Source: an uncultured Clostridia bacterium
Lineage (GTDB): Bacteria > Bacillota > Clostridia > Christensenellales > UBA1242
DNA length: 64,000 bases
Direction of reading: 5' to 3'
Assembly: GCA_934771475.1 (NCBI GenBank)
Contig: CAKVMD010000003.1
Coordinates: 14,573-78,572 of the forward strand
In this document: positions 507-56,773 of the stretch, in pieces
How the letters are laid out: each line of letters starts with the position of its first letter
Numbering within the stretch: position 1 is the stretch's first letter
Notes under the pieces: generated by a model
Told to the model about the DNA's origin: nothing
Databases searched by the model: none
Seen by the model: only the letters and a program-made list of their open reading frames with translations
Made by a program: the position numbers and the translations under genes

Positions 507-3500
507 TTGAAAAGTAAAAACAAAAAAAGATTTTGGGGACTCTTTTGTGGATACCTATTTTCGATTTTGTTTTTGACGAGCGGATTGGTTTTAAGTGTAA
601 CTTCAGCACTTTCGCTCGCAACTATTAATGCGGGCGGAAAATTTAATTTTATTGTGCCAGTGCCAGACGAATCTGTCTACACTGGCATTTTAAAATTTTA
701 TGATCCTGACTCGACTGCCTTTACCATTTCGGTTTGCGCAGACCCATCAACAAAATCAAATAGCAGTTATCCATCAGAAGTGGAAATCCCAAGTAAAATT
801 AAAGTTAACGATGTTACCTATACAATAACGATTGTAGGGTCTTTTTCTGGTTGTTCTAACCTTCAATCCATAACAATTCCTGATAGTGCGACTACTATCA
901 ATTCCTCCATTTATTCTTCAACCACAGGCGCTGGGGTTACTGACAGCTTAGGCGCTTTTGAAAACTGCACTAATCTTCAATCAATAAATATTCCTAGTGG
1001 TATTCAGTCAATCGCAACTGGGTCATTCAGTGGATGTACCGGGATTACAACGATGACTGTTGCTAGTGAAAATACAAAATATTATAGTGCTGGAAACGCA
1101 ATCATCACTAAGGCAGACAAAACTCTTGTTGCTGGATGCAAAAACACAGTTATTCCAAATAATGTTATCCGCATTGGCGATCGCGCATTCCGCAAAATAT
1201 CAAACTTGACTTCAATCACTATCCCAACTTCGGTAAAAACCTTGGGCTCAAGTGCCTTTGCATTTTCTGGGCTTACAAGCGTTTCCGTGCCATCTGGGGT
1301 AACAAGCATTGCGTCAAACGCCTTTGCTTGCTGTACTTCTCTGGGCTCTATAAGTGTTGACAGCGCAAACACTAAGTATAAAGGTGAAAATAATGCTATT
1401 ATTGAAAAATCAACAAACAAATTGATTGTTGGATGCAAAAATACTGTAATTCCTAGTGATGTCAAAGAAATTGGAAGTTATGCTTTCCAAGGGCATCCTA
1501 TCACAAGCGTAACAATTCCAGCAAGCACCACAATAATTAATCCTTACGCATTTTTAAGTTGTTCAAATCTCACTTCTGTAACTTTTGAAAAACCTTATGG
1601 TTGGAAGGCGGGAGATACAGAGGTGGATGTATCTGAAAGCACTTCTCAAAACGCGACATGGCTTAAAGAAACATATTCTGGCTTAGCATGGATACAGTCA
1701 ACTCCAACTGAAGACGATTATAGCGACTTTATTTTCACATTCGATGATACCGCTATGACCGCATCGGTTAAAGCAAAAGATTTCAGAACAATTTCTGGTG
1801 ATAAGGTTATTCCAAAGTATGTGGCAAAGAGCAGAGAAACAACTGCTTACTTAGTAACCGCAATTGATGAAGAAGCTTTCTATCTACCAGGGAGTAGTGG
1901 TGCAACAAATCTTACTGGAATAACTTTGCCTAATAGTATCATCACTATTGGTGCTAACGCATTTAGGTACTCATCTTTGACAGAAATTGTTATCCCAGAT
2001 TCGGTTACGAGCATTGGCGCTGCTGCATTTGCTCAAGTAACGACAGCACAATCTCTCACCTTGGGTAATAAAGTTGAAACTATAGATAATGGTGCATTTA
2101 ATAAAATTGGTGCTAGCTCAGTTTTCATTCCTGCAAGCGTTAAGAGTATAGGTAAAAATCCGTTTGGTGGCCTTAATAATTGCACTAGCTTAACGGTTGC
2201 AACTGGCAACACGGTATATAGAAGCGAGGGGAATTGTCTCATTGATATTTCTCAAGAGATGGTTATTGCGGGAATTGGAAATTCAACAATTCCAACATCG
2301 GGAGTCTCTTCAATAGGACCTTATGCGTTCTCACAACTTACATCATTGTCAAGCATAACTATTCCATCAAATATAACGACGATAGGATTGAGAGCGTTCC
2401 AAGGATGTACAAGTCTTGCAAGTATTACACTTGGCGAAAACCTTACAACTATCGGTGAAAGAGCATTCTATAATGATAGTGCTCTCACTTCAATCACAAT
2501 TCCAGCAAATGTTAAAACTATAGAAGTCAACGCATTCCAAAATACTGGGCTCACCTCTGCAACCTTTGAAGACCCAGTTGGCTGGAAAGCAGGAGATGTC
2601 GCAATTTACCCTAGTGACGCAAGTCAAAATGCAACATATTTGAAATCAACTTACGCTACATCTGCTTGGACAAAAGGTTCAACTGCACTCTTCACTTTCA
2701 CTTATGACACAGCAAACAAGACTGCGACACTTACTGCAATCGACAGTTCAGTAACAAAGGCGGAAGTTCCTAGCAAGGTTGTTTATGGAGGTGCAACTTA
2801 CACCGTGACAAAAATTGGTGGCGGTAGCGATGCTGCTGGTGATGACGGCGATACTGCTATTTCAACAACACTGACCAGCATTACTTTGCCAAACAGCATT
2901 GTAACAATAAGCGATTATGCATTCGTGGAATGCTCAGGACTTACATCAATCTCTATCCCATCAAGCGTAAAAGAGATTGGAGTGATGGCTTTGGCCGGAA
3001 CAGGTCTGACAAGTATCACCATTCCTAACAATGTGACAAGTTTGGGATACGGAGTTTTAGGAGATTGTAGGTCACTTATTACTGTAAGTTTGGGGACAGG
3101 TATCACAGAGTTGCCAGAAAATTGTTTTGCTGATTGTTCTGTTCTTGCGACTGTCAATATTCCTACAAGCGTGACATTGATAGGAGTGCAAGCGTTCGCA
3201 GGGTGTTCAAAACTTACCACAATCACCATTCCAAGCAGTGTGACAAGTATTGGGGCAAGAGCGTTTGCACCTTCTGGGTTAACCTCTGCGACAATTCAAA
3301 CTAAAACTGGTCATGGTTGGAAGGCGGGAGATACACTTTTAGATGTTTCAACTCCTTCACAAAATGCAACTTGGTTAGCAAATAGTAATTATTCTATGTT
3401 ACAATGGACTCAATTTCTCAAGGACGAAGATTTTTATTCAGATTTCACATTCACATTTAATGACACAGCAAAAACTGCTTCAGTCAAAGCAAGAGATGTA

Positions 3501-6500
3501 AGCACAATTTCTGGGAATAAGGAAATTCCAAGCAAGGTTGTTAAAAATGGCACAACAACGCTATACACTGTGACAGAGATTGATGTGCACGGGTTTGATA
3601 ACGCAACAAAACTTACAGGAATCACAATACCTGAAAGTATAACCACTATTTATACTAGTTCATTCTTCAATTGCAGTGGACTTGAATCAATAAAAGTTGC
3701 CGCAGAGAATACAAAATTCTACAGTTATGAAAATGGGCTTTATTCTAAAGGGAAAAATGTTTTAGTATTGGGTTGCAAAAACACAGTTATTAAAGATTCA
3801 ACAACCGCCATTGGAATTCAAGCATTTCAAGGCTGCACAGGTCTTAAATCAATCACAATTCCAAGCGGTGTGACAAGTATTGGAACGTATGCATTTAGAG
3901 GTTCGGGACTTATCGCAGTAACATTTGAAAAAGCTTATGGCTGGAAGGCGGGAGATGACTATGTTGATACGACTACTCCTGCACCACAATCGGCAGAATA
4001 TTTAACTAAAACATATAATGATAGAACTTGGACATGGGTAGATAAAAACATATTCAGTTATGATTATAACACCACAAACTATACCGCTAAAGTATATATT
4101 AACAGCAATGCAAAAGATATTACAGGTGGAATTATAATTCCAGCGAAGACAAGATATTCTGGCAATGTATACAATGTTACTTCGGTTAAACAAGAAGGGT
4201 TCAATGAATGTAGAAATATGGCTAGAATCATTCTTCCAGAAGGACTTACAACGATTGAGGCGAATGCATTTAAATATTGCAATTCTGTTACAAGTCTAAA
4301 TGTCCCAGCAACTGTTACAAATATTCTTCCTGGTGCGATGAATGACATGTGGGGACTTGAGACCTTGACTGTTCAAAATGGTAATGGAAGGTATTTCGCT
4401 AGTGGGAACACTATTGTAGAAGGAGCAACAATGAAAGTTGTTCAAGGGTGTCCTACATCGGTTATCCCAGAAGGGGCTTTAATCATTGGCGAGGGTGCGT
4501 TTGGAGGAATCCAAGTGGATGTAACCCTGCCAAGCACAATCACAGCCATTGAAACTTACGCCTTTGGTTGGGCTGGCTTTGAATCTTTCACTATTCCTGC
4601 AAGTGTAACGAGAATCGACGCCCATGCATTTGAAGGAGCACCAAACCTTACAAGTGTGTCCTTTGAAGATATAAATGGATGGACTGTAAGCGATGGAACT
4701 AATAAAACTACAATTGAAGGAGCACTATCCTCGAGTTATGCAGCTGCAATATATTTAACAGGCACATATATGTCTTATACATGGACGAAAACCAAAGTGT
4801 TTGAATTGTTTACATTTGAGTATAATGATTCCTTTGAAACCGCAAGTGTCAGCGGTGCAACAACATCTGAATCAGAGAATGTTGGAGATATTGCAATTCC
4901 TTCAATGGTGTATTACAATGGGAAATTTTATAATGTAACAAGTATAAGATCTTTCGCAGCTTTTCAAGCATCCATTGACGATTTGTTTATTCCTGCAAGT
5001 ATTACCGGAATTGTAGAGTATGCATTTGCTTATGGTGGATACATGAGCACTGCAACTTTTGAAAAAACCAAAGGGTGGTTTGATGGTGTTGGCAACGCAA
5101 TAGATTCTGCAAGGCTTGAAGATCCTTCAACTGCACCAAGTGTGATCTCTGAAAAATACGCAAATGGAATGTATCGCGTACCTACCACAGATGAATATCC
5201 AAAATTGACCTTTAGTGAGTTTAACGATTCGGTTGAGAGCTGTTCGGTTTCGGCCGCCAGCACAACTATTTCTGGAGAGATAACAATTCCACAAAGAGTT
5301 TGCTATAATCAAAAAATATATTATGTATACAGAATTGTGGATAACGGGTTTAAAAATTGCAAATCTATAACTAATATAGATTTAACAGATGCCTCCTACA
5401 TCAAAACAATTGGGGCATCTGCGTTCCAAGACTGCACAAGGCTTTCAAGTGTAACTATTGGTACAAGCTTGAAATATATTCCTGAATATTGCTTTGCTGG
5501 ATGCACTGCCCTAAAATCAATCACAATTCCAAGTGGTATTTTGGAAATTGGCAAATATGCGTTTAGCGGGACAATGCTTACTAGTGCAACATTTGAGGAT
5601 ACAGAGTCTTGGTGTTGCAGAAATGGGACTAATACGATTACCTCTATTACAGTTACTAATGCATCAACAAATGCAATTTATCTTAAATCTACTTATGTTG
5701 CCTATTCATGGGAGAGGGTAGCCCAGGTATCTACATTTACAGACTTTAAATTTTCCAACTATGATAGCACCGCAAAGACATGTAGTGTTGCGGCTAGCGG
5801 TACATCAATCTCTGGAGATATCAGAATTCCTGGACGCGTGAAATATTATAATAGCGGCGTTTATGAAGTAAAAGAAATTGTGGCTCAAGGATTTAAAGAC
5901 TGCTCAAAGGTTACTGGAATATATATTCCATCAACTATAAATAGTATTGGGAATTATGCATTTTCAGGCACGAGTCTTGAAACTATTGAGGTCGCTTTAG
6001 GAAATAGCACTTATAAGAGTGTGGGGCCTTCTGGCAGAGAGACTAATTCTATAATTGAAATTTCTACCAATACCCTTATTCTTGGTTGCAAAAACACAAT
6101 TATTGATTCAAGTGTTATAAAGATTGGTTATGGCGCATTTAGAGGACAACTTGTCGAGAATATAACCATTCCTGAAAATGTTAAGATTATTGATGAGTGG
6201 GCATTCTATCAGACTAGTCAATTAAATTCTGTAAATGTTATGGGTGCAGTTGAAATCAAATATGGTGCGTTTGCCGAATCAGCTATTCAATCTATCTATC
6301 TACCTTCAACATTGGTTGTGATAGAAGAAAGAGCGTTCATGAACAGTTTTGAAATCAACAATGTTGTCATACCTGCAAGCGTTGCGAATATTGGTGTCAA
6401 TGCATTTGCTACTTCTGACCCGCAAAGAAGTAGTGCGCTTACAAGTGTTAGATTTGAAAAACAAAACGATTGGTATGCGGGTACCACCTCAGCGTTGAAT

Positions 6501-7385
6501 CTTAGCAATTCGACAACTAATGCTACATATCTTACTGGTACATATAAAGATTATGAATGGGTAAGAAAAGAATCGGCTTATTCTTCACTCACATTTACAA
6601 ATTACAATAGTTCTGCGAAGACTTGTTCGGTTAAAGCAAAGAGCACATCAATTTTTGGACAAATTGTCATTCCTAATAAGGTTTATTATTCTGGTTCGGT
6701 TTACACTGTGACAAAAATTGATGTTGAGGGATTTAAGGATTGTGCAAATGTGACATCTGTCATCATTCCATCAACCGTTACGGAACTTGGCGTTAGGTCA
6801 TTCCAAAGTTGCAAGATGTCTTCGTTAACACTTATTGAAGGATTGAAAATTATTAATGATGACGCGTTAAAAGCAACAAATATTGAATCACTTTATATTC
6901 CTTCAACTGTCACATCGATCATAACGGCTTTTGTGGACAACCCACAATTATCTAAAATGGAAGTAGATGGGGCTAATACTACTTATTATAGTTCTGGAAA
7001 CTGTATAATTGAAAAATCTAATATGAAAGTGGTTGGAGGGTGCTATAACTCTCAAATTCCATACGGAGTCAAAATTATAGGTGCATGGGCATTCTCGGGG
7101 AAACACACCTTAACATCTATTACATTGCCATCAACTGTAACTAGAATTGAAAAAGCAGCATTCGGTTGGAGCGCACTTACTTCAATCACAATTCCGGCGA
7201 ATGTAACATTTATTCAAGGACAGGTATTTGCGGGTTGCACTCAATTATCGTCTGTAACATTTAAGAACAAATCTGGTTGGCGCGTAGATGGAGTAGGTTC
7301 GATCAGCGTAACCAATGCGACACAAAATGCTACATGGATTAAGCATGGTGGACTGTACTCTAACCAAGACTGGACTAGATCATAA
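507..7385 (+). CDS. Giant (2292 aa) BspA/TpLRR-like leucine-rich-repeat surface protein with an N-terminal signal-anchor
   Basis: One uninterrupted ORF with a TTG start 6 nt after AGGAG (496-500). Hydrophobic N-terminus FWGLFCGYLFSILFLTSGLVL. Dozens of ~23-25-aa repeats of the form IPxSVTSIGxxAFxxCxxLTSITIP. A terminator lies directly downstream. Confidence 0.9.
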   Translation: MKSKNKKRFWGLFCGYLFSILFLTSGLVLSVTSALSLATINAGGKFNFIVPVPDESVYTGILKFYDPDSTAFTISVCADPSTKSNSSYPSEVEIPSKIKVNDVTYTITIVGSFSGCSNLQSITIPDSATTINSSIYSSTTGAGVTDSLGAFENCTNLQSINIPSGIQSIATGSFSGCTGITTMTVASENTKYYSAGNAIITKADKTLVAGCKNTVIPNNVIRIGDRAFRKISNLTSITIPTSVKTLGSSAFAFSGLTSVSVPSGVTSIASNAFACCTSLGSISVDSANTKYKGENNAIIEKSTNKLIVGCKNTVIPSDVKEIGSYAFQGHPITSVTIPASTTIINPYAFLSCSNLTSVTFEKPYGWKAGDTEVDVSESTSQNATWLKETYSGLAWIQSTPTEDDYSDFIFTFDDTAMTASVKAKDFRTISGDKVIPKYVAKSRETTAYLVTAIDEEAFYLPGSSGATNLTGITLPNSIITIGANAFRYSSLTEIVIPDSVTSIGAAAFAQVTTAQSLTLGNKVETIDNGAFNKIGASSVFIPASVKSIGKNPFGGLNNCTSLTVATGNTVYRSEGNCLIDISQEMVIAGIGNSTIPTSGVSSIGPYAFSQLTSLSSITIPSNITTIGLRAFQGCTSLASITLGENLTTIGERAFYNDSALTSITIPANVKTIEVNAFQNTGLTSATFEDPVGWKAGDVAIYPSDASQNATYLKSTYATSAWTKGSTALFTFTYDTANKTATLTAIDSSVTKAEVPSKVVYGGATYTVTKIGGGSDAAGDDGDTAISTTLTSITLPNSIVTISDYAFVECSGLTSISIPSSVKEIGVMALAGTGLTSITIPNNVTSLGYGVLGDCRSLITVSLGTGITELPENCFADCSVLATVNIPTSVTLIGVQAFAGCSKLTTITIPSSVTSIGARAFAPSGLTSATIQTKTGHGWKAGDTLLDVSTPSQNATWLANSNYSMLQWTQFLKDEDFYSDFTFTFNDTAKTASVKARDVSTISGNKEIPSKVVKNGTTTLYTVTEIDVHGFDNATKLTGITIPESITTIYTSSFFNCSGLESIKVAAENTKFYSYENGLYSKGKNVLVLGCKNTVIKDSTTAIGIQAFQGCTGLKSITIPSGVTSIGTYAFRGSGLIAVTFEKAYGWKAGDDYVDTTTPAPQSAEYLTKTYNDRTWTWVDKNIFSYDYNTTNYTAKVYINSNAKDITGGIIIPAKTRYSGNVYNVTSVKQEGFNECRNMARIILPEGLTTIEANAFKYCNSVTSLNVPATVTNILPGAMNDMWGLETLTVQNGNGRYFASGNTIVEGATMKVVQGCPTSVIPEGALIIGEGAFGGIQVDVTLPSTITAIETYAFGWAGFESFTIPASVTRIDAHAFEGAPNLTSVSFEDINGWTVSDGTNKTTIEGALSSSYAAAIYLTGTYMSYTWTKTKVFELFTFEYNDSFETASVSGATTSESENVGDIAIPSMVYYNGKFYNVTSIRSFAAFQASIDDLFIPASITGIVEYAFAYGGYMSTATFEKTKGWFDGVGNAIDSARLEDPSTAPSVISEKYANGMYRVPTTDEYPKLTFSEFNDSVESCSVSAASTTISGEITIPQRVCYNQKIYYVYRIVDNGFKNCKSITNIDLTDASYIKTIGASAFQDCTRLSSVTIGTSLKYIPEYCFAGCTALKSITIPSGILEIGKYAFSGTMLTSATFEDTESWCCRNGTNTITSITVTNASTNAIYLKSTYVAYSWERVAQVSTFTDFKFSNYDSTAKTCSVAASGTSISGDIRIPGRVKYYNSGVYEVKEIVAQGFKDCSKVTGIYIPSTINSIGNYAFSGTSLETIEVALGNSTYKSVGPSGRETNSIIEISTNTLILGCKNTIIDSSVIKIGYGAFRGQLVENITIPENVKIIDEWAFYQTSQLNSVNVMGAVEIKYGAFAESAIQSIYLPSTLVVIEERAFMNSFEINNVVIPASVANIGVNAFATSDPQRSSALTSVRFEKQNDWYAGTTSALNLSNSTTNATYLTGTYKDYEWVRKESAYSSLTFTNYNSSAKTCSVKAKSTSIFGQIVIPNKVYYSGSVYTVTKIDVEGFKDCANVTSVIIPSTVTELGVRSFQSCKMSSLTLIEGLKIINDDALKATNIESLYIPSTVTSIITAFVDNPQLSKMEVDGANTTYYSSGNCIIEKSNMKVVGGCYNSQIPYGVKIIGAWAFSGKHTLTSITLPSTVTRIEKAAFGWSALTSITIPANVTFIQGQVFAGCTQLSSVTFKNKSGWRVDGVGSISVTNATQNATWIKHGGLYSNQDWTRS

Positions 7386-7435
7386 TTTCGCCAAACATTA
7401 TTGTAGAGCGAAGAGAACAAATTTGACAAAACAAA

Positions 7436-7470
7436 AAAGACTGGAAAAAAGTTTTTCCAGTCTTTTTTGT
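7436..7470 (+). terminator. Rho-independent terminator of the LRR gene
   Basis: Stem AAGACTGGAAAAA / TTTTTCCAGTCTT with a 3-nt loop, followed by a T-run. Confidence 0.8.
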
Positions 7471-7650: not shown

Positions 7651-7848
7651 ATGAGAAAAATACATTTTAAAAGTATAGTGTTGCGTAAAAAGATGCTTAT
7701 TGGCTTGATTTTCTCCCTAATAGTAGCAATAACTGCCTGTTTCTTGCCGAGGGCGATTTCAATCAATTCTCCTAAGCCTGTCCACACTATTGTGATTGAT
7801 GCTGGGCATGGTGGTCGCGATGTCAAGTTAGGACACACAAGTTTTTGA
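7651..7848 (+). pseudogene. Truncated 5' stump of a CwlD-type N-acetylmuramoyl-L-alanine amidase gene
   Basis: Encodes a signal-anchor plus PKPVHTIVIDAGHGGRD, identical to residues of the intact amidase at 10338-11030. It then runs 8 unrelated codons to a stop. Confidence 0.75.
7771..7822 (+). repeat. Left copy of a 52-bp direct repeat (49/52 identical to 10452-10503)
   Basis: Direct base-by-base comparison gives three mismatches. Flanks diverge immediately on both sides. Confidence 0.95.
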
Positions 7849-7856
7849 AATAAAAA

Positions 7857-7880
7857 AGAGCATATCATCTGATATGCTCT
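7857..7880. terminator. Bidirectional hairpin between the amidase stump and the convergent cassette
   Basis: AGAGCATATCA-TCT-GATATGCTCT flanked by an A-run and a T-run. Confidence 0.6.
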
Positions 7881-7890
7881 TTTAAAAAAT

Positions 7891-8346
7891 TTATTGTAAC
7901 CAATATCTATCTGTTGTTTCATCCCAAATATCTTTTAATAATTTCCCCTCAACTTTAGCATTGTTCTTAAAATCTTCTTTTGATTTGAATAGAAACATTT
8001 CTCTAGTTTTTGAATTATAAAGTTGAATCTCAACAACATCTTTGCTTTTCCCGACAAGTTCAACCGCATAATATGTTCCATCGTATTCAAACTGCATTTC
8101 TCCATAACTAAATAGGGCATCAATAAAATCGTTAAGACTTAGTTCAAAAGGTTTGCCTTCTTTGTAAAGTTGACGTGCTCTATTGAGAGAAAGAGTATTT
8201 GGTAATGCTACATCATCAGGATTTTCTTCGTTAAGAAAACAGTTAAACCAACCACAACTTTTACATTTGCCTTGTTCATAAATATCAACTTTTATTATTT
8301 CCCCACAAACTTCACATTTTTTTTCGTAGCTTTTTTCAATTTTCAT
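7891..8346 (-). CDS. CPCC-type cysteine-rich zinc-ribbon domain protein with an uncharacterised C-terminal domain (immunity-protein-like)
   Basis: N-terminus has CEVCG...CKSCGWFNC...NPDD...PNTLSLNRARQLY, matching my recollection of the Cys_rich_CPCC family. AAGGAG RBS overlaps the upstream stop. Last gene of the operon. Confidence 0.6.
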   Translation of the reverse strand: MKIEKSYEKKCEVCGEIIKVDIYEQGKCKSCGWFNCFLNEENPDDVALPNTLSLNRARQLYKEGKPFELSLNDFIDALFSYGEMQFEYDGTYYAVELVGKSKDVVEIQLYNSKTREMFLFKSKEDFKNNAKVEGKLLKDIWDETTDRYWLQ

Positions 8347-8357
8347 GTTTTACTCCT

Positions 8358-8651
8358 TTAACAAAAATTAGAGCTAGTTTTTTCGCCATTTGGACCAATA
8401 TATGGAGGTCTAGGATTTTTCGGATTACCCCAGTTGACATAATGGTCATGTGGCCACTCATGGTCTCCGCCACCATGCGACCAATCACGATACCAAATTA
8501 TTCTTCCATCTGGTCCATACCATCCTTGTTGTAACAAATTTCCATTTTCATCATACAAATCTATTCTAGTATTTGGCAACCATAACCTAGGCAAAGAACC
8601 AACTCGTCCAGTGTGGCTACTTATTCCACCACTTGGTTTACACATTCCCAT
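8358..8651 (-). CDS. 97-aa Trp/His/Gly/Pro-rich protein with a YD-repeat-like motif (possible orphan toxin-type module)
   Basis: AGGAGGTG lies 6 nt before the ATG, inside the 3' end of the upstream gene (31-nt overlap). Motifs YDENGNLLQQGWYGPDGR and HGGGDHEWPHDHYVNW. No signal peptide. Confidence 0.6.
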   Translation of the reverse strand: MGMCKPSGGISSHTGRVGSLPRLWLPNTRIDLYDENGNLLQQGWYGPDGRIIWYRDWSHGGGDHEWPHDHYVNWGNPKNPRPPYIGPNGEKTSSNFC

Positions 8652-9469
8652 TGTAGCACCTCCTGTGGCAAAAGTTCAAACGGTTTAGATGATAATCCGC
8701 CACCAATTCCAATAAGTTTAAATTTTAATTGCTTACCAAACAAATCATTTACTTTTAGTTTGGATGTAAAAAGTCCAGCAGTGTGATATTTTGTTTTTGT
8801 CCTTTGATTATCTAAATACCATTCAATTCTATCGGCGAAGAGTGATTTTATTTCAATTTCACCTTGATAATTGTTTACATCAATAGAAACAATTTTTGGT
8901 GCACCTATTAAATTACCATTTTTTGTGATAGCAAATAATTTTTTCTTATCACTATACGAAATTTTATCCCATACCACATTTTCATAAGGATTTTTTATAA
9001 GTGGGATATTATTTTGTTTCACTTCAATACTTTTTCCACCGAATTTTTCTAAGTCTGCAACTATTTTCCAGCGAAAAACTTTGTTTCTTTCTTCATATTC
9101 AAGTAATGCTTTGTTAAGGTGAGATGCAAATTGCATTTCTGAGCAGTTGTTAACTTTCATAAAATGTTCTTCTGCTTCTTCACCAAAACCAAGCCTAACT
9201 GAATTTTTGAAATGTTTAACTCCATGACAGCGTGAACAAATTGCTTTGATATGTTTCAATGTTTGTGTTTTCTTATTTACGTCAAATACCCATTCTTCAT
9301 GAATATCAAGGTCTTCCGATTCATACCCACAAATTTCACATCTTCCATTTGCTCTTTTAAGTGCAATTTCACGAAGTTTGTCCCAATCTTTTTTGACAAG
9401 TGTTTTACTAAAATCGTTTCCCCATGCTCCTTTTGGGAGCAAATTTATTGTAAGTTTAAATTCTTCCAT
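8621..9469 (-). CDS. HNH-like zinc-finger nuclease domain protein with an unknown ~170-aa C-terminal region
   Basis: CEICG(x8)DIHEEW(x20)CSRCHGVKH arrangement (CxxC...H...CxxCH...H). AGGAG RBS overlaps the DUF4417 stop codon. Confidence 0.65.
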   Translation of the reverse strand: MEEFKLTINLLPKGAWGNDFSKTLVKKDWDKLREIALKRANGRCEICGYESEDLDIHEEWVFDVNKKTQTLKHIKAICSRCHGVKHFKNSVRLGFGEEAEEHFMKVNNCSEMQFASHLNKALLEYEERNKVFRWKIVADLEKFGGKSIEVKQNNIPLIKNPYENVVWDKISYSDKKKLFAITKNGNLIGAPKIVSIDVNNYQGEIEIKSLFADRIEWYLDNQRTKTKYHTAGLFTSKLKVNDLFGKQLKFKLIGIGGGLSSKPFELLPQEVLQWECVNQVVE

Positions 9470-9478
9470 AATTTTCTC

Positions 9479-10210
9479 CTAAATTTCGGGGTATAACTCG
9501 CCAGCAAGTTTCTTTTTCATAAATTCAGCAAGTCCAATTTTTTTGATAAGTTCTTCGCTGTTGTAAGGGTCAATTGCTTTAATGTTTCCTTTCATTTCTT
9601 CAAAAGGGGTGCCATAGCAAATGATTGCACTAGGTTTTATTTTTTCCATCATTATTTCATACCCTTCCATAAAGCCTTTTTTATTATCTTCTCTCGTGTA
9701 GGTAGAAACTGCCACAACAGAACCTTCCTCAACACCATCACAAAAGAAATCAAAACAACCATAAGAGCCCCAAGAAATTGTCGGAATGACAAGCATACCT
9801 TGTTTTTGCCAAAATGCTCCACACCAACGATTTTTGAAAACACTGTCAATTTGCCTTGCAAGTGGCATATCTTTATAGGTGCTAAATTCTGGGGTGAGTA
9901 AGGCATAGTATTTGTCTAATTTTTCAAATGCTTGTTCTGGCTTTTCATAAACATTTTCAAAATTCCAATCGTATGTAAAGAAATGTATCGTTTTACTTTT
10001 ATTTTCTTCATCATTTACCTTTAAATAACTTAGAAGTTCAATTTTTTCTAAGTCAATATTTTGTTTTTTAATTAGTGGCATCCCATATATGCCGCATTTT
10101 TCAAACTCATTTCTTACGAGTTTTTGCTTCTTTTTTCGCTTTTCTTCTTCGTAATTGTTTTCATTCTCTTCAAAAGAAAAAAGTGAACTTAGTTGTTCGT
10201 TTTTTATCAC
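9479..10210 (-). CDS. DUF4417 family protein
   Basis: FFTYDWNFENVYEKPE...LLTPEFSTYKDMPLARQIDSVFKNRWCGAFWQKQGMLVIPTISW matches my recollection of the DUF4417 core. GTG start after AAGGAGG. Confidence 0.7.
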   Translation of the reverse strand: MIKNEQLSSLFSFEENENNYEEEKRKKKQKLVRNEFEKCGIYGMPLIKKQNIDLEKIELLSYLKVNDEENKSKTIHFFTYDWNFENVYEKPEQAFEKLDKYYALLTPEFSTYKDMPLARQIDSVFKNRWCGAFWQKQGMLVIPTISWGSYGCFDFFCDGVEEGSVVAVSTYTREDNKKGFMEGYEIMMEKIKPSAIICYGTPFEEMKGNIKAIDPYNSEELIKKIGLAEFMKKKLAGELYPEI

Positions 10211-10337
10211 ATTTCCTCCTTATTTTCATAAGACTTTTGTGTCTTTGGCAAAGGTTATATCATGGAAATTTTCAGGATTGCAAGAAAGTGTGCCATTTTT
10301 TCGCATTTATTTTGTAATTATTTAATAAAATACCTTG

Positions 10338-11030
10338 ATGAAACTTAAATTTTTAACGATAAAAAAGTCGCATTGCGCCATTTTTCTTGCAATTGTTTTG
10401 ATTGTGTGTGTTTTTTGTGCCACATATTTTTCTATTAAGTCAAGCGCGTCGCCCAAGCCTGTTCACACTATTGTGATTGATGCTGGGCATGGTGGTCGTG
10501 ATGGAGGTGCCTGCGGTGTAAAAACTGGGGTTACTGAAAGTGAACTCAATTTGAAGTATGCCGAGACTCTTAAAGGGTTATGTGAAGAATTTGGAATGAG
10601 AGTTGTTATGACTCGCAGTGATATGAATGGTTTGTATGACGAAAGTGCTCCAAACAAAAAGAAAAGTGAAATGGAAAAGAGGAAGCAAATTATCAACAAT
10701 TCGGGGGCGGACCTTATGATTAGCATTCACATGAACAGTTTTCCCTTGCCATCTTCACAAGGAGCTCATGTGTTTTACGCAAAAGGTAGTGAAAGTGGTT
10801 TTGAACTTGCAAAATCTATCCAAACATCTCTCTGTAAAAGTCTGTCAAATGCGCGCAAGTATGTTTCTGTTGGAGATTATTTCGTTTTAAATTATTCGTC
10901 TATGCCTGCGGTGCTTATAGAGTGTGGTTTCTTGTCTTGCCCGGAAGAGGAACAAAATCTTTTAAGTGATGCTTATCGAGAAAATATGTGTTACAACATC
11001 TTGGCGGGCGTAATCGCGTTTTTTCAATAA
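10338..11030 (+). CDS. cwlD: Germination-specific N-acetylmuramoyl-L-alanine amidase (CwlD-like)
   Basis: Signal-anchor, then VIDAGHGGRDGGA, KKKSEMEKRKQIIN, ISIHMNS and LIECGFLS motifs colinear with Bacillus CwlD. The ATG sits one codon after the tracked TTG. Confidence 0.85.
   Translation: MKLKFLTIKKSHCAIFLAIVLIVCVFCATYFSIKSSASPKPVHTIVIDAGHGGRDGGACGVKTGVTESELNLKYAETLKGLCEEFGMRVVMTRSDMNGLYDESAPNKKKSEMEKRKQIINNSGADLMISIHMNSFPLPSSQGAHVFYAKGSESGFELAKSIQTSLCKSLSNARKYVSVGDYFVLNYSSMPAVLIECGFLSCPEEEQNLLSDAYRENMCYNILAGVIAFFQ
10452..10503 (+). repeat. Right copy of the 52-bp direct repeat, inside intact cwlD
   Basis: 49/52 identical to 7771-7822. Confidence 0.95.
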
Positions 11031-24231: not shown

Positions 24232-25260
24232 TTAATAAGCAATCATCATCACTGATAGTGAGGCACTTGGCGCGCCAGAAGCGGTGATGGTTCTATCTTG
24301 TGCCACATTTGCCACTAAGGTGATTTTATCGTTTCGATTTATTAATGTTGCAAAAACCGCGGTGGTGTTGGTTGTTGTGGTAATTGGGCGTTTACTTGAT
24401 GTAACAAGAACTCCATTTATGGCAACCCCGACATAGTCTCCGGGCGCTGCTTGCTCACCATTGTTGACTGAGAAGGTTATGAGGAAGGTCCCAGTTGTGG
24501 GTGATATAAGCGCACTGTCCTCTATTTTAAAACTATTATTAAGTTCTATTTCATTTAAAAGAAGCGTGGCGCCATTTTTTACAATTTGAGAACTTGGATT
24601 ATATATTGTTGCGTTTATGTCGGGTGTCAAGCCGGGAGGCCCTGCCACACCTTGCGCACCTTTCTGTCCGCGGGGGATGTGAAATGTTAAACGATGTACA
24701 TTGTTTTCAAAGTCGTCAATCACCGCTGCATCTTCGCCCGGCTCAACGGTTTGTGTCCCGTTTATGGCAATGGTCTCGCTTACGCCAGCCTCTCCCTTTT
24801 CTCCGTCCTTACCCTTTGGCAAAAAGAAATCAAGATAATGCAAATCGTCCTCGTACCTATCTTCCACTCGGGGTTGCTCATTTTCCGCTATGGCAGTGGC
24901 ATCACCAGCCAAAATTGTCTCACTAAACCCGTCAAAGCCTTTTGGCAAGGCAAAATCTAAATAAACGGTGTTCCCTTCGTGAAGTGATTCGACTCGCGCC
25001 ATTTCGCCTGCTGGAAGAGTGCGAGTAGAGCGGATAACTATATTTTCTCCGCTAGGGCCTGTTGCTCCCGTTGCACCAGTGTTCCCCGTGGCTCCTGTTG
25101 CCCCGGTCGCGCCATCTAAGCCTGTTGCCCCGGTCGCGCCAGTTGCGCCCGTGGCTCCGGTGGAGCCTCTCAAACAAAAAGGCTCTGTAATTATTTGTTG
25201 TGGATACGCCCCACAAGTGTTTTTCAAAAATTGTTTAGAGTAATCACATTCTTTTTTCAT
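24232..25260 (-). CDS. BclA-like collagen-repeat protein (342 aa)
   Basis: [41 protein letters not shown], then three ~40-aa non-collagen modules each ending in (F/L)xxP(K/R)G, short GXY linkers, and a C-terminal ~125-aa beta domain. Confidence 0.9.
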
Positions 25261-27525: not shown

Positions 27526-29091
<1,566 letters not shown>

Positions 29092-51232: not shown

Positions 51233-54200
51233 ATGAAAAAGAAATCCTTGTTAACTTTGGCTTTGGCTTCGTGTATGCTTGTGCCTGGCGCGCTCTCATT
51301 AAGTGCGTGCGGAGGTGCCAAGGATAAAAATCCTGAGTTCACTCAATATGTAAACATGTCCACAGAAATTATGACCTCTTATGGAGTGGATTTGAGTGGG
51401 AGCGAGTCAAGTGGGCTTAATAATGAAAATGCTCAAAATGGAGTAATTCTTGCAAGCGGGCTTTCTTCTGACGAACAGCCTTTCCACAAGCAACTTTTTG
51501 ATAAAGTAAACGCTGACGAAGACAAACTGGAAGCAAACGAAACTATTGGCGTTGTTATGCAAGACTTTTACAAAAGTACTTTTTATTCAACGCTGGCCTG
51601 CGGGAAAGTGCTCACGGACACTTTTGGCTGGACTAGTTTTTACAATGTTGTTGCAAGAGTAATGGTGGATGAAGCACCTTTGGGGGACGGATACTATGTT
51701 GTAAACAAACTCGATGAGTATAATTATCGTTTTATTCTTTTCTCAGATATGGAGAAAGAGGGTGAAACTAGTGGCGCGCCAGAACTTGCGACTATATGTA
51801 ACATTCATTATGTCGATAAAGGTGATTTCTATTTTGAATGTCGCTCTTATTCTCTCTATGGCAAGGGCTTCTCTTATGTTTATGGAAATAGTGATTTAGA
51901 GTTTGCATACTGTCAGTACAGCGAGTATGGCGAGGCTGGGCAAGAGAATTATAATGAAGAATACAAAACCGTTGTTTACAACGGGGCGAGCGCTTATGAA
52001 TCACTTGACAAAAGTGTTGCCCTTTATGGGAAAGATACTATTTTTACTCAGGAATGCATCAATGAAATCGTTGACCAATGCTACGCCTTGAAAGGGCAAG
52101 AAAAGCAAACCATGACTTCTCTTCAATTTCAAGAGGGCATACAATATTATGTTGATACACTCTCAAATGGTGCAAGCACTTCGGTTGGAAGCTTCTTTGT
52201 AATTAGGGATGGCGTATTATCCGATTTTAACTATGTTTATGAGGACGGTAAAACAGACTACACTTATGGCAAGTCAACTATGATTTTGCCAAGGGCGGTT
52301 AAGGCAATAAGGGTCGATTTAGTTTTCCCAGCCGATGTTGAAAAGGTTATCATTCCAAACACTGTTGAATATTTTGATAATCAACGAGCAAGGGGCGAGT
52401 TTAATCCTTTCTGCTTTGCGAGAAAGATGAGTAATGGTGAGGTTGAATATAAAGTTGAAGCCGTTTATGCCGACAACTCCACACTTTGCAAAGTACAAAA
52501 TGAAAACATTTATTACAAAGATAAAGAAGGCAGATTCTTGGTGGGACAATTAAACAATTTGTCAGCGTTCTATGCGGATAATGGCATAACTTCGCTTGGT
52601 CAAATTGAAATAGACGCTAGGGAGAATCCAAACATTTACTCACTTCTTGAAGAAAACATAATCCAGACTTTGAAAGCGCATAATTGTTATAGCGAATATG
52701 TTATAAATCAAATTATTCACGGTGCTGCGAGCCATTCATTATATAATTTAATGGATATCACGATTGATTTTTATTATCAACCATGCTACCTTGATTGGCT
52801 CTATTTAGGTACACCTGAATTTCCTATCACAATAAACAGCTTAACTTTAAAGAACTTACCGGGTGGGAGCCATATCCAAGTCCCAATTGGAGAGGGGGAA
52901 ATTGACGCTGAAACAGGCGATGTCCCAGTAAAGGAAATTAAAAATATCACAGTTGAAAACGCGGAAGAAGGCGCAGTTCTTTCAATTCTAGCAAATAGCA
53001 AAGAACAAAGTGCAAATGGTGAAAAAGCCACAAAAATTGGCAAAATAAACTTGTGTGAAGGATTGGCATCTTTCATTGTTGAGGGCGCCACCGAAACAGA
53101 TGAAACGAGTTTGGTTGTGCCAGAATCAGTTATCGATTTTAATTATCAACCACAATGCTCAGGAGACTTTGAATTAACAATAAACTATATTCAATGGAGT
53201 GGCGGAGAAATGCTTGTCCCTAAGGTGTCAAAAAATCACACCTTGACTATAAATTCAAGAAAGGATAGGGTTGCAAAAAACTATTTCCTTGAAGAAGTAG
53301 AAAGACAAAAAGAAGCGGGCGAACCTTACTCAAATCCACAAAATGGCACAAGCTGGCAAGATTGCAGTGGCGAAGAAGGAATGCTTTATAGCCCTACCAC
53401 AGTTCAGCAGTGGCAAGATATTTTCAACGGACAATATCCTAACATTAAAATTAACTTGCTAAATAAACTTCCTTTTATGCTCAAATTTGATGATTGTGAT
53501 GATTCAGTATTTGCAGAAAATGAATTTTACATAGATGTTAGCGAAGATTTTGCTTTTAATTATATTCACAGAAATAAGATTGACCACTCGGCTGACGAAT
53601 ATGATTTAAGCAAAGATATGGCATTCATATTTGACAAACAAATTGTAGAATTTGAAAACAAATTGACAAAAGAGAAAGGGAAAGGATATGTTATTCCTCT
53701 TGGCGAGGGTGAAAATAATATTACAATAACATATTACACTGATGAGCAAGACAAACAATCATTTAATTTAACTATTTATAGATGTGTTTCTACAACAGTT
53801 GTATATCACTTAGGCGTTTATGAGCCAGAAGAACTCACAATTTCCGAAATTTCGGAAGGCGAAATGGGCGCGGATGGCAAAATAGACACCGTAACCCCAT
53901 TTGAACTTGTAAAGAAAAATGGAGAATGGTGCTATGAGGCGTCTTATACAGAAGATGTTTCTGGGGAAAATATCTTTTCAGTCTATGAATCTTTACGATT
54001 AATTAAAGATAGAGTTTCGCGAAAGTATTACAACCTTACGACTAATGTTTACTTAGATAGAAGTTGTGAAACTCTCTGTGAACCAAAAGTTGCCTTAACA
54101 AGCGAAGAGCTTAATGTTTACCTCAAATGGGAAGAGTGGCGAATTTCATACAAAGTTTATAGGCGAATTTCATACCTAGGCGATGAAAGATACAATTATG

Positions 54201-56773
54201 CCGACTATAACGAAATGTGGGATGAGTCTATTTTAATGAGTCAGACCGTTGATTTAACCAAATTTGTTCCAACATTGAAATATTACAAGTTTGAAGGTTG
54301 GTATAACTTCAATGTGGTTAGGTCAGAGCGTCTTTATAACTACACTGATTTTGATTTCAGCAAAGGCGAAAAACTTGAATCATTGACTGGTAAATATATT
54401 TACGACTTTTTAAACGGAGATGAGTACATTTCTTATGATGATGACTACTATGGATTTTATCTCGTTGCGCACTTTGTCCCAGTTGATTATAGGTTGGTTG
54501 TAGATTACAGAGATTTGGAAAATGACGGAGTCGTTGCGAAAGAGATAACCTTTAACATCGAAAACTACCGCTCTCTTGATTTGCCAGTGCTTACCAACAC
54601 CCCAACGGGATATGCGTTTGAAGGTTATGGTTTGCAACGCGACATGGGCGATGTAGAAGGCAAGGCGGGATGTTATACAAACGAGTATGTTGTGAGCGAA
54701 CATGTTGCATATTATAGAAACGGTAGCTTTAAATTCTCTGAGGATACTATTTCGCTTATAGATCAACTTCCAGAAGACCTCACTGCACCTATTCAGCCAG
54801 TTGTTATCTACGCAAACTTTTTGGCAATTAAATATACATTAACACAAATTAGGTACGATGTGGACGAGTACGATTATCAAACATCCCCACTTAGAACATG
54901 TACATTCAATGTCGAAGAAGAAGTAGAACTTTACAAAAGTGGAGATGAAAAATATTTTGGTGTTAAATGGTATACCGAAAAGAACGGAGAAGGCGTAGAA
55001 TACACCAAAATCGAAAAAGGAACTCATCAAAATATCACTCTTTACAGCAAATGCACGCCAAAGTCATGCACAGCTAATGTTATTTATCAAACTGTTACGC
55101 AAATTAACGAAACAGAATACAGGTGTGTAAACCAAGAAACAAAGACTTATACTGGCTTTACGACTGAGCCAAAAGAGACGCACATTCCTTTTGACTACAA
55201 AGTTCCAGAAAACTATGTGGAAAACAAAAAGATTTACGGCGGTTTGTCGCTCGGACAAAGAGGAGATATCGCTGATTATGAAAAGTTCGCTACTGAGGTA
55301 GGAGAAGATGTTCTATTTCCTAGAAAAAAATTGCATTATTACTCGCACAATGATACTTTGGTGGCCGATATCTATATCATGATTGAATGCGACTATTTGC
55401 TCACCTTTAACGTAAAAGAAACGGGCGCCGAATATTATTACGAGAGCGAAGAGAATGACCCATACTGCGGACAAAGACTTACCCTCCAAGAGAAGGGTAT
55501 CAGCATTGAATATGCAGATGACGCGCATAAACTTATCAAGTCATTTACTTATAGAGTTAATGGTGCAACATTTGCGAAAAACAAAGATGCTGATGGAAAA
55601 ATCAAAAAGGTTTATCTCCCATTATTCAAGAAAGATGGATATTATATTCAAGATATTTACAGCAAAGGTGGCGATTACTCAAACAATAACACAATAGATA
55701 TTATAGGTTGGGGACAATATATCCACGAAGAAAATCAGTATGCTAAGTATGAAAAGGCTTACATTAATAATTATGAAAGCCCAGCACAGTACACATGGAA
55801 CTGGTATGGATTTGCCACATATCACAACTACTTGCACTTAGATGAAACGGGCGAAAACCTTGTCTATGATGACTTTAAAATATGCATGAGCAGATTTGCT
55901 GAAAGTAATGGCATGTTTAAAGTTATTAACATGAATTCACAATACGCTTTTGATAAGTATATCAAGAATGGTGAGAACAATTTCCAATGGGATGATTACA
56001 ATCAATTTATTTATAAAGATAAATATTTTACTTCATCAATGCTTCTTGTTGGTGATAAGTATGATAGCACTGCAAATGACCAAATTCTTGTTGACATCAC
56101 AGAGCCAGCGGATTTCTATTTTAGACAAAGAGTTGAATTTAGGTTTGAATTCATTTCAGAAGACAGCACAGAGGAAAAAGAGTCTTACTATATTGCCAAA
56201 AAGTACATCTACCTTGACACTATAAAAAATAAGGATGAATTTGTATTTGACACCGCCGACTATTCTCTTGAAAAAATTAGAGATACTGCGGATGTTTGCG
56301 ATATCGAGATTTCTAAACTTTGTGGCAAATATGACATTGTCGAATGGAATAACTACTTTAATGGAGAGAGTTCTCCTATCACTGTTCCACTCGAATACAA
56401 CGTTTATAGTTTTATCCTCAGCCACACAAGTTATAAGAGCGATGGAACAAATGTATTCAGCGTTAAAATTGGAATTGCTCCTCGCATTGACTTTGTAAGA
56501 GTGATTGACGGCGTAGAAACAACCATTCACACTGTCAACATAACTGGCTTTGATACTAGATGGAACTATACAACTAAATTTGAAGATTTGCCTGCAAATT
56601 ATGCATCGCAAACACTCTTATCAAGTTATAATGTTGCAATCAAACAAAAATTTACAAGTGGCACATTTGGTGGGAAATATTATGCTTCATATAATTCTCA
56701 AACTCAGACATACTCTGACGCAATAACCTCGCTTACTGGACTTGCAAGATATCAAAAGATATATGTCGTTTAA
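51233..56773 (+). CDS. Giant (1846 aa) acidic lipoprotein of unknown function with Listeria/Bacteroides-repeat-like segments
   Basis: Lipobox LSLSAC at Cys26 and a GAGGAGG RBS. Segments YKFEGWYNF, GYAFEGYG and GVKWYTEKNGEGVEYTKIEKGTHQNITLYSKC resemble Flg_new/InlB-B repeats. The rest is unassigned. Confidence 0.85.
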   Translation: MKKKSLLTLALASCMLVPGALSLSACGGAKDKNPEFTQYVNMSTEIMTSYGVDLSGSESSGLNNENAQNGVILASGLSSDEQPFHKQLFDKVNADEDKLEANETIGVVMQDFYKSTFYSTLACGKVLTDTFGWTSFYNVVARVMVDEAPLGDGYYVVNKLDEYNYRFILFSDMEKEGETSGAPELATICNIHYVDKGDFYFECRSYSLYGKGFSYVYGNSDLEFAYCQYSEYGEAGQENYNEEYKTVVYNGASAYESLDKSVALYGKDTIFTQECINEIVDQCYALKGQEKQTMTSLQFQEGIQYYVDTLSNGASTSVGSFFVIRDGVLSDFNYVYEDGKTDYTYGKSTMILPRAVKAIRVDLVFPADVEKVIIPNTVEYFDNQRARGEFNPFCFARKMSNGEVEYKVEAVYADNSTLCKVQNENIYYKDKEGRFLVGQLNNLSAFYADNGITSLGQIEIDARENPNIYSLLEENIIQTLKAHNCYSEYVINQIIHGAASHSLYNLMDITIDFYYQPCYLDWLYLGTPEFPITINSLTLKNLPGGSHIQVPIGEGEIDAETGDVPVKEIKNITVENAEEGAVLSILANSKEQSANGEKATKIGKINLCEGLASFIVEGATETDETSLVVPESVIDFNYQPQCSGDFELTINYIQWSGGEMLVPKVSKNHTLTINSRKDRVAKNYFLEEVERQKEAGEPYSNPQNGTSWQDCSGEEGMLYSPTTVQQWQDIFNGQYPNIKINLLNKLPFMLKFDDCDDSVFAENEFYIDVSEDFAFNYIHRNKIDHSADEYDLSKDMAFIFDKQIVEFENKLTKEKGKGYVIPLGEGENNITITYYTDEQDKQSFNLTIYRCVSTTVVYHLGVYEPEELTISEISEGEMGADGKIDTVTPFELVKKNGEWCYEASYTEDVSGENIFSVYESLRLIKDRVSRKYYNLTTNVYLDRSCETLCEPKVALTSEELNVYLKWEEWRISYKVYRRISYLGDERYNYADYNEMWDESILMSQTVDLTKFVPTLKYYKFEGWYNFNVVRSERLYNYTDFDFSKGEKLESLTGKYIYDFLNGDEYISYDDDYYGFYLVAHFVPVDYRLVVDYRDLENDGVVAKEITFNIENYRSLDLPVLTNTPTGYAFEGYGLQRDMGDVEGKAGCYTNEYVVSEHVAYYRNGSFKFSEDTISLIDQLPEDLTAPIQPVVIYANFLAIKYTLTQIRYDVDEYDYQTSPLRTCTFNVEEEVELYKSGDEKYFGVKWYTEKNGEGVEYTKIEKGTHQNITLYSKCTPKSCTANVIYQTVTQINETEYRCVNQETKTYTGFTTEPKETHIPFDYKVPENYVENKKIYGGLSLGQRGDIADYEKFATEVGEDVLFPRKKLHYYSHNDTLVADIYIMIECDYLLTFNVKETGAEYYYESEENDPYCGQRLTLQEKGISIEYADDAHKLIKSFTYRVNGATFAKNKDADGKIKKVYLPLFKKDGYYIQDIYSKGGDYSNNNTIDIIGWGQYIHEENQYAKYEKAYINNYESPAQYTWNWYGFATYHNYLHLDETGENLVYDDFKICMSRFAESNGMFKVINMNSQYAFDKYIKNGENNFQWDDYNQFIYKDKYFTSSMLLVGDKYDSTANDQILVDITEPADFYFRQRVEFRFEFISEDSTEEKESYYIAKKYIYLDTIKNKDEFVFDTADYSLEKIRDTADVCDIEISKLCGKYDIVEWNNYFNGESSPITVPLEYNVYSFILSHTSYKSDGTNVFSVKIGIAPRIDFVRVIDGVETTIHTVNITGFDTRWNYTTKFEDLPANYASQTLLSSYNVAIKQKFTSGTFGGKYYASYNSQTQTYSDAITSLTGLARYQKIYVV

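Follow-up and report, generated by a model that had tools for sequence, protein, structure and literature searches.

A 64,000-nucleotide stretch of contig CAKVMD010000003.1, from an uncultured Clostridia bacterium (hereafter the window), carries a tightly packed operon of four minus-strand genes, encoding a DUF4417 protein, an HNH-type protein, a 97-aa protein that we call sm and a CPCC zinc-ribbon protein (Table 1). Comparison with related genomes makes it somewhat probable that this operon is a mobile four-component conflict cassette, in which a polymorphic toxin-immunity pair is joined to a DUF4417-HNH nuclease pair. The four families are conserved together in related genomes, sm-CPCC modules recur in different cassettes, homologues of sm, of CPCC and of a further family, c5, are found among polymorphic toxin systems and their partner proteins, and the copy in the window lies between two copies of a segment of an amidase gene. 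A preliminary description of this DNA had proposed an undescribed conflict module at this place. That proposal is supported, with the qualification that the toxin-immunity half is of a sort already familiar; we found no literature describing the four-gene combination.

Table 1. Positions of the operon, of the insertion and of other features within the window
Feature	Position	Strand	Remarks
Gene 1, DUF4417 protein	9479-10210	minus	243 aa
Gene 2, HNH protein	8621-9469	minus	282 aa
Gene 3, sm protein	8358-8651	minus	97 aa
Gene 4, CPCC zinc-ribbon protein	7891-8346	minus	151 aa
Handle (HNH-3'/sm-5' junction)	8592-8651	minus	most conserved 60 nt of the cassette
Intrinsic terminator of the operon	7854-7883	minus	13-pair hairpin, then T-run, 3' of gene 4
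Weak sigma-70-like promoter candidate upstream of DUF4417	10222-10251	minus	9/12 consensus match only
Direct repeat, left copy	7759-7822	plus	exact core 7783-7817; inside orphan amidase stub
Direct repeat, right copy	10440-10503	plus	exact core 10464-10498; inside intact cwlD-like gene
Junction J	7822-7835	plus	GTCAAGTTAGGACA, 14 nt; starts at the breakpoint
Orphan N-terminal fragment of cwlD-like amidase	7651-7848	plus	65 aa; ends in GHGGRD, then VKLGHTSF and stop
Intact cwlD-like N-acetylmuramoyl-L-alanine amidase gene	10335-11030	plus	insertion target
LRR_5 (BspA-like) surface protein	507-7385	plus	2,292 aa
Terminator of the LRR_5 gene	7431-7470		perfect 19-bp stem
Collagen-repeat/BclA_C exosporium-like protein	24232-25260	minus	
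Collagen-repeat/BclA_C exosporium-like protein	27526-29091	minus	
Open reading frame without Pfam match	51233-56773	plus	1,846 aa

Operon structure and conservation of the four families

The four open reading frames (ORFs) previously listed are all present. They are separated by gaps of 9 and 11 nt and share one 31-nt overlap, with a Shine-Dalgarno sequence at each of these places. The DUF4417/HNH junction reads TAG-GAGAAAATT-ATG and the sm/CPCC junction TAA-AGGAGTAAAAC-ATG, and AGGAGGTG sits inside the HNH gene, 5 nt 5' of the sm ATG. These junctions had been described as built for coupled translation. Their sequences read as described, but the 31-nt overlap of HNH and sm is a derived accident and not a design feature. 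In relatives the HNH protein ends in LLPQEVL and its TAA stop overlaps the next ATG (TAATG). In the window, CAA replaces this stop (8651-8653, minus), so that the HNH protein is 10 codons longer here and its gene runs on over the start of sm. The GC content of the cassette (0.28-0.39) is below that of its flanks and the GC skew is inverted inside the unit.

To follow these genes in other organisms, one genome per species was scanned. This yielded at least 112 relatives, from which 80 loci were kept; 79 of them are labelled as uncultured Clostridia or Bacillota (Christensenellales-like), the exception being a bin labelled Paludibacter. Mapping and clustering of ORFs covered 83 loci. The HNH gene is present in all 83 and DUF4417 in 79, CPCC in 74 (127 genes), sm in 50 and c5 in 26. 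Thereby the co-occurrence outside this genome that the preliminary description had set beforehand as a test was found. The invariant core consists of DUF4417 followed by HNH, and the adjoining variable module of sm or c5 with between one and five CPCC genes after it. Two gene orders exist, DUF-HNH-toxin-CPCC and toxin-CPCC-DUF-HNH (type B). Moreover, in seven loci (L045, L021, L036, L044, L083, L086, L096) a CPCC-type N-terminus is fused to DUF4417 in ORFs of 346-371 aa; in L045, the one that was checked, Pfam confirmed both domains. The four-family set therefore behaves as one system.

The variable module and the conserved core

The sm protein is a free-standing version of a C-terminal domain of polymorphic toxins. 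An exhaustive phmmer search matched 275 proteins and defined the whole-domain pattern PNS..DLY..G.L.Q.R.YG.DGRA..D.D..H.G..H.FPH.H.W.W..PR, which includes the sm motif D.D..H.G..H.FPH.H.W.W; residues 25-57 form a YD/RHS-type repeat (one hairpin). The domain recurs in RHS proteins, where it forms the extreme C-terminus beyond the DPxGL motif and matches in a single stretch. In a PT-HINT protein it follows the HN/C junction, and in other toxins it directly precedes the membrane/Tox-WTIP segment. Loci encoding the RHS/PT-HINT-type proteins with an sm domain also hold Imm44, Imm32 and Ntox21 genes. The AlphaFold2 (AF2) model of sm is all-beta, with a predicted local distance difference test score (pLDDT) of 92. 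No family was assigned to sm in the Pfam, NCBIfam and PADLOC scans, and the PDB sequence-profile search gave no match. Among free-standing sm proteins the N-terminal MGMCKPSGG is invariant and the usual ending is (Y/F)-C; the N-terminus resembles the residues that follow the PT-HINT HN/C cleavage junction.

The CPCC protein, made of a zinc ribbon and a variable C-terminal domain, is a candidate cognate immunity protein or antitoxin of sm. Of 55 family members, 54 match Pfam CPCC (E up to 4e-12). A profile built from the family matches PDB 8EY3_A and 8EY4_I, both named 'Cys_rich_CPCC domain-containing protein' (E 3e-10). The alternative variable component, c5, is a protein of about 110 aa, unrelated to sm and colicin-D/CdiA-CT-like. 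It matched no family in the Pfam, NCBIfam and PADLOC scans; its profile matches PDB 8EY4_A, a 'PT-VENN domain-containing protein' (E 1.3e-6), then colicin D (E 0.03). Thus, both chains of a single PDB entry have homologues in type-B cassettes. Judging from the names of these chains and their presence in one entry, 8EY4 would be a CdiA-CT/immunity complex. Judged by position, sm stands in for c5 in front of a CPCC gene. Long CPCC variants of 337-354 aa, with an N-terminal extension of about 200 aa before the CPCC part, were also observed (L119 4184-5215, L120 291-1355, L024, L047, L056, L069, L095).

The two halves of the cassette differ in their degree of polymorphism. In pairwise comparisons of 31 complete type-A cassettes, the mean identity is 77% for DUF4417, 66% for HNH, 57% for sm and 45% for CPCC. 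Identities of sm correlate with those of CPCC (r 0.83), and those of DUF4417 with those of HNH (r 0.71); across the two halves the correlations are 0.29 (HNH-sm) and 0.34 (HNH-CPCC). The idea that sm is tracked by the C-terminal domain of CPCC alone was rejected, both CPCC domains co-varying equally with sm. At the nucleotide level, conservation reaches 0.86 in the handle (cassette positions 1531-1590) and then falls to 0.51, among the least conserved stretches.

Extra sm-CPCC modules open with C-terminal fragments of HNH, 22-92 codons long (L019, L028, L031, L034, L036, L038, L063). Adjacent sm-CPCC modules could be extracted in 36 cases, with CPCC directly downstream of sm. Comparison between arrays gave about 95% identity for modules where the cores reach only about 88%. 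These comparisons indicate that sm-CPCC modules are swapped as units behind the handle at the HNH 3' end. The arrays have the architecture of orphan toxin/immunity modules, but with the handle in a separate gene.

The likeness to polymorphic toxins pointed out in the preliminary description is borne out. With polymorphic toxin systems (Rhs/CdiA-CT/PT-HINT) the cassette shares the homologies of sm (RHS/PT-HINT C-termini), c5 (CdiA-CT, 8EY4_A, and colicin D) and CPCC (8EY4_I), the immunity-like gene immediately downstream, the arrays of extra modules with lone immunity genes, and a handle that precedes orphan modules and is followed by a hypervariable region. It differs from them in several respects. 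The putative toxin is free-standing, 97-110 aa long, and has neither an RHS, VENN or LXG part nor a signal peptide. The handle belongs to the HNH gene, and the pair is always linked to DUF4417-HNH. Finally, sm is paired with CPCC, whereas RHS versions are paired with Imm50-like genes.

The assignment of the first gene to DUF4417 is firm (Pfam PF14386, E 8e-51, 172.5 bits for a cut-off of 28.9 bits; phrog_940, E 1e-50). Residues H76, D81, S110, Q120, T144, D158 and S169 are invariant in an alignment that includes phage homologues of 28-32% identity. The AF2 model (pLDDT 77) has an alpha/beta fold, and its recurrent matches, all of them non-significant, are TIM-barrel enzymes, notably tRNA-guanine transglycosylases (TGT) and phage DpdA-like proteins. 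DUF4417 looks like an enzyme. Phages and prophages commonly carry the family, and in phages its genes lie near terminase or methylase genes or are fused to ParB; the literature mentioning it assigns no function.

The HNH protein has, as described before, an HNH-type finger followed by an uncharacterised C-terminal domain. Similarity to phage HNH endonucleases (phrog_5200, E 7e-27) covers residues 4-138, and the motif CxxC...DxHE...CxxCH lies within residues 1-140, with C44, C47, D55, H57, C78, C81, H82 and H86 invariant. The C-terminal domain of about 140 residues is beta-rich and matches no family in the Pfam, NCBIfam and PADLOC scans. Homologues number 346, and relatives are 272-275 aa long compared with 282 aa in the window. 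Neither HNH nor DUF4417 found a match in PDB sequence-profile searches. On the strength of the invariant residues of DUF4417, its fold matches and its phage neighbours, we treat DUF4417-HNH as a putative DNA-acting pair. A single ORF of 490 aa (P0058) comprises DUF4417 and an HNH part 70% identical to that of the window, which may be a genuine fusion or result from a frameshift in the assembly.

Insertion at the amidase gene and spread of the cassette

The insertion-like context previously noticed turned out to be literal: the cassette is here a 2,681-bp insertion at the GHGGxD codons of a cwlD-like amidase gene. The operon is bracketed by a 64-nt direct repeat, 88% identical between copies and with a 35-nt exact core, whose start-to-start distance gives the length of the unit (chance expectation 0). 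The core encodes the amidase residues H-T-I-V-I-D-A-G-H-G-G-R-D. The intact gene matches Pfam Amidase_3 (E 8e-44), and its best NCBIfam match is spore_cwlD (E 1e-50), under the equivalog cut-off. Owing to the duplication of its 5' end, the amidase gene remains whole. The duplication in amidase-site loci spans 150-180 nt, from about the ribosome-binding site to GHGGxD, and its copies are 96% identical in L041 and 67% identical in L040.

The same anatomy is found repeatedly. The cassette adjoins the amidase gene in 31 loci, and every orphan amidase copy stops at GHGGxD and continues with VKLG(Q/H/E). Of the orphan junctions, 19 in 15 loci carry J exactly or with one or two mismatches, independently of the type and orientation of the adjoining cargo, and J is conserved far beyond its surroundings. 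In the metagenome locus L119 (contig ULSO01074728.1), the junction of amidase core and J (5477-5505) is followed 50 nt on by the 3' end of a large-serine-recombinase gene; none of the other loci has such a gene at the junction. The 64-kb window contains no integrase or recombinase homologue, and viral contigs contain no free-form or prophage copy of the junction. In the window the cassette is present as a fixed, recombinase-less insertion.

Two side observations concern this site. In L021 (4448-12846), one amidase gene is adjoined by three units in tandem, every one of which has an orphan stub and a junction to itself; they are, in order, a type-A cassette, a type-B cassette with a CPCC-DUF4417 fusion, and CPCC genes alone. 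The recombinase part seen in L119 (5556-6272, minus) is C-terminal, with Zn_ribbon_recom and DUF4368, and is cut at the end of the fetched stretch.

Three further ideas were rejected. The amidase N-terminus and the intergenic region do not travel with the cassette, as conservation falls to host level at the DUF4417 start. J was not taken for a truncated CPCC gene: its other strand reads 'CPNLTS', similar to the CPCC motif, but the upstream residues do not fit and the similarity was regarded as a coincidence. Contigs of about 2.7 kb with exactly the four genes were not taken for circles; the identical 25-nt ends of L007 are the flanking repeat, which breaks assemblies.

Comparison with the flanking genes points to horizontal spread. 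Between the amidase-site genomes and the window, the amino-acid identities are 38-51% for the guanylate kinase Gmk, 44-57% for SpoIIE and 50-69% for the amidase, which flank the cassette, and 85-91% for DUF4417 and 67-80% for HNH inside it. Cassette proteins are far more conserved than flanking genes, and the cassette is therefore younger than the divergence of its hosts and has spread horizontally. This spread would have used tRNA-Thr integrase islands or the amidase site. Many relatives have the cassette flanked on one side by a tyrosine integrase, accompanied by an Xis-like gene, and on the other by the 3' end of tRNA-Thr(GGT). The latter is a hotspot of tandem islands with a DdmD-like helicase-nuclease, a MazE-like gene and type I restriction-modification (RM), and AbiEi/AbiEii (L014 2581-5961, 10220-13255; L085 7235-8760). 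One type-B block is 97.4% identical beside two different integrase genes. No tRNA island was recognised in the window, the only tRNA of which (Leu) is 6 kb off. Two features of L011 (2525-4976) were seen in passing. A group II intron-type reverse transcriptase adjoins a 5'-truncated DUF4417 gene, and a 100-nt tandem duplication that starts inside tRNA-Thr also abuts this truncated gene.

The other genes of the window are of housekeeping or sporulation type (SpoIIE, TilS, PriA, SipL, BclA-like), in line with the neighbourhood first described. Directly left of the insertion lies the gene of the LRR_5 surface protein, followed by its own terminator; other genera have different genes at this position. 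Two collagen-repeat/BclA_C proteins and a long ORF are found further away (Table 1).

Explanations of the cassette and their implications

We propose that the cassette combines two co-evolving pairs, conserved DUF4417 and HNH proteins that would act on DNA, and polymorphic intracellular sm and CPCC proteins. The sm protein would be a toxin, held in check by the CPCC protein encoded just downstream, and new toxin/immunity modules would enter by recombination at the handle. As the cassette rides integrative elements, the toxin-immunity pair may stabilise the element (addiction) and/or kill the cell on phage attack. DUF4417-HNH would supply DNA cleavage, either as a restriction-like effector or sensor, or as an aid to the element's own insertion, so that addiction, abortive defence and homing may all be considered as roles. 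The copy in the window would represent a fixed unit of 2.68 kb at the GHGGxD codons of the cwlD-like gene, which the duplicated 5' segment keeps intact.

Several results weigh against this proposal. Foldseek found no fold neighbour of sm in the PDB and no catalytic fold is recognisable in this protein, which, starting with MGMCKPSGG, has no trafficking domain, signal or repeats beyond the one YD hairpin of its 97 aa. The earlier designation of gene 4 as a CPCC zinc ribbon holds for the family, but the window's protein alone stays below threshold (Pfam PF14206, 20.4 bits for a cut-off of 24.5 bits; PDB E 0.37). Behind RHS/PT-HINT toxins with a terminal sm-like domain lie Imm50-like genes and not CPCC genes, and a relationship of the CPCC C-terminal domain to the immunity genes after RHS sm-type toxins was rejected, BLASTP and hhalign being negative. 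A literature search retrieved no publication on PDB 8EY3 or 8EY4 or on CPCC immunity. For DUF4417, Foldseek against the PDB gave no significant fold neighbour. As already stated in the preliminary description, no named defence or toxin-antitoxin system is recognised: PADLOC-DB v2 returned no known anti-phage system, its only match being a weak one of the HNH protein to NsnC (E 0.0075). Finally, no empty site was found in same-species contigs, where every long contig has the cassette, or in metagenome contigs.

Among the alternatives, an anti-phage function by abortive infection or restriction is possible, though somewhat unlikely, and it overlaps our proposal rather than excluding it. DUF4417-HNH would sense or cut invading, possibly modified, DNA, infection would free the toxin from CPCC, and the islands would be defence cargo. 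On tRNA-Thr integrase islands the cassette occupies the cargo slot and has DdmD-like, type I RM and AbiE genes as neighbours, which would fit this function, as would a diversifying module exchange typical of arms races and the CPCC-DUF4417 fusion, which ties the toxin-immunity half to the DNA half; moreover, with DUF4417 common in phages near packaging or methylase genes, phages may carry counter-versions. On the other hand, defence genes make up only 3 of the 10 sampled neighbours, no PADLOC model matches, and the weak NsnC match comes without NsnA or NsnB. NsnC effectors of Menshen (NsnABC) carry nuclease domains, but in the absence of NsnA (ParB-DUF262) and NsnB partners the match amounts to generic HNH similarity. 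With type II toxin-antitoxin and abortive-infection modules the cassette shares two small adjacent co-varying intracellular genes and a location on integrative elements and in defence hotspots, but it has four components including a conserved nuclease pair, places the toxin first, forms module arrays and finds no counterpart in PADLOC. The co-variation of DUF4417 and HNH (r 0.71) could also be read as that of a second toxin-immunity pair, an HNH toxin with DUF4417 as its immunity protein, side by side with sm or c5 and CPCC. The type-B order brings the putative immunities next to each other, and their fusion in several loci would then join two immunity proteins; HNH nucleases are common polymorphic-toxin domains. 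This arrangement of two pairs is nevertheless very unlikely. The polar residues of DUF4417 stay invariant in phage homologues of 28-32% identity that lack an HNH partner of this type, which fits an enzyme over an inhibitor. DUF4417-HNH also varies less than the rest of the cassette, which is not typical of toxin-immunity pairs. Extremely improbable, and already largely refuted, is a prophage remnant whose HNH and DUF4417 proteins would serve DNA packaging like HNH-terminase pairs. Phage DUF4417 genes do often lie two or three genes upstream of terminase, but the HNH family is near-absent from viruses (one locus in 2.9 million viral contigs, at a contig edge and with no terminase nearby). Neither the window nor the flanking genes of the 83 loci, as far as these were recurrent or sampled, showed any phage structural or terminase gene, and the gene beside DUF4417 in a Christensenellales phage is unrelated to this HNH. 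Occurrence inside prophages only, which would have spoken against the conflict module from the outset, is thus not what was observed.

The insertion site raises the question of how the unit arrived there. It is rather unlikely that the unit is the non-autonomous or decayed remnant of a cwlD-targeting large-serine-recombinase element, with the four genes as cargo and J as an att arm. The recombinase gene end 50 nt from the junction in L119, the conservation of J far beyond its surroundings and the large-serine-recombinase elements known from the literature in sporulation genes (skin, SPbeta, gin) would agree with such an origin, the cassette too sitting in a cwlD-like sporulation gene. But the argument has a single-locus basis, no such recombinase having been found elsewhere among the loci or within the 64-kb window, and serine-recombinase integration alone makes no duplication of 150-180 nt. 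Unlike those elements, the unit leaves its gene uninterrupted and has no recombinase in the window, and cwlD is not named as a target in the literature found on them; such an origin would also account for the platform and not for the function of the cassette. Selfish homing appears unlikely. HNH, with DUF4417, would cut the cwlD GHGGxD site, repeat-mediated copying would follow, and the toxin-immunity pair would serve post-segregational addiction only. A nucleotide-identical insertion point across genera, for a unit that has no recombinase gene, would be expected from homing, and so would the use of one junction by two oppositely oriented cargo types and tandem re-insertions such as the three units of L021. 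Within the amidase gene no segment is more conserved than the target, and the HNH domain, with its catalytic motif, is closest to free-standing homing-type phage HNH genes (phrog_5200), which likewise occupy one precise conserved coding site across diverged genomes. However, the intact target persists beside the element, duplicated and not split, so that there is no self-immunity to cutting. Furthermore, the cassette carries three extra genes and is also found on ordinary integrase/tRNA islands, some amidase-site units have no DUF4417-HNH (L021 unit 3, L024 unit 2, L120), and one relative has the large serine recombinase at the same junction. No empty site was found in the species or in metagenome contigs, and hence no presence/absence polymorphism of the kind shown by homing endonucleases was seen.

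Returning to the mobile conflict cassette, a distinctly unlikely extension of it is that DUF4417 and HNH are a recombinase-independent insertion machinery acting at cwlD-type GHGGxD DNA, which would install the toxin-immunity cargo and regenerate the 5' end of the gene via the 150-180-nt duplication. If true, DUF4417 would thereby receive its first function, as an enzyme acting on DNA, with a possible relation to base-exchange (TGT/DpdA-like) folds.

Independently of that extension, DUF4417 gains its first well-defined genetic context, with an obligate HNH partner and sometimes a fused CPCC domain, whose family matches a protein probably co-crystallised with a CdiA-type toxin fragment. Polymorphic-toxin modules, with their orphan arrays and their handle, can sit behind a separate nuclease gene inside the cell and not on a secreted toxin. 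Finally, a recurrent integrase-free insertion site is exposed in a sporulation amidase gene of abundant uncultured gut Clostridia.

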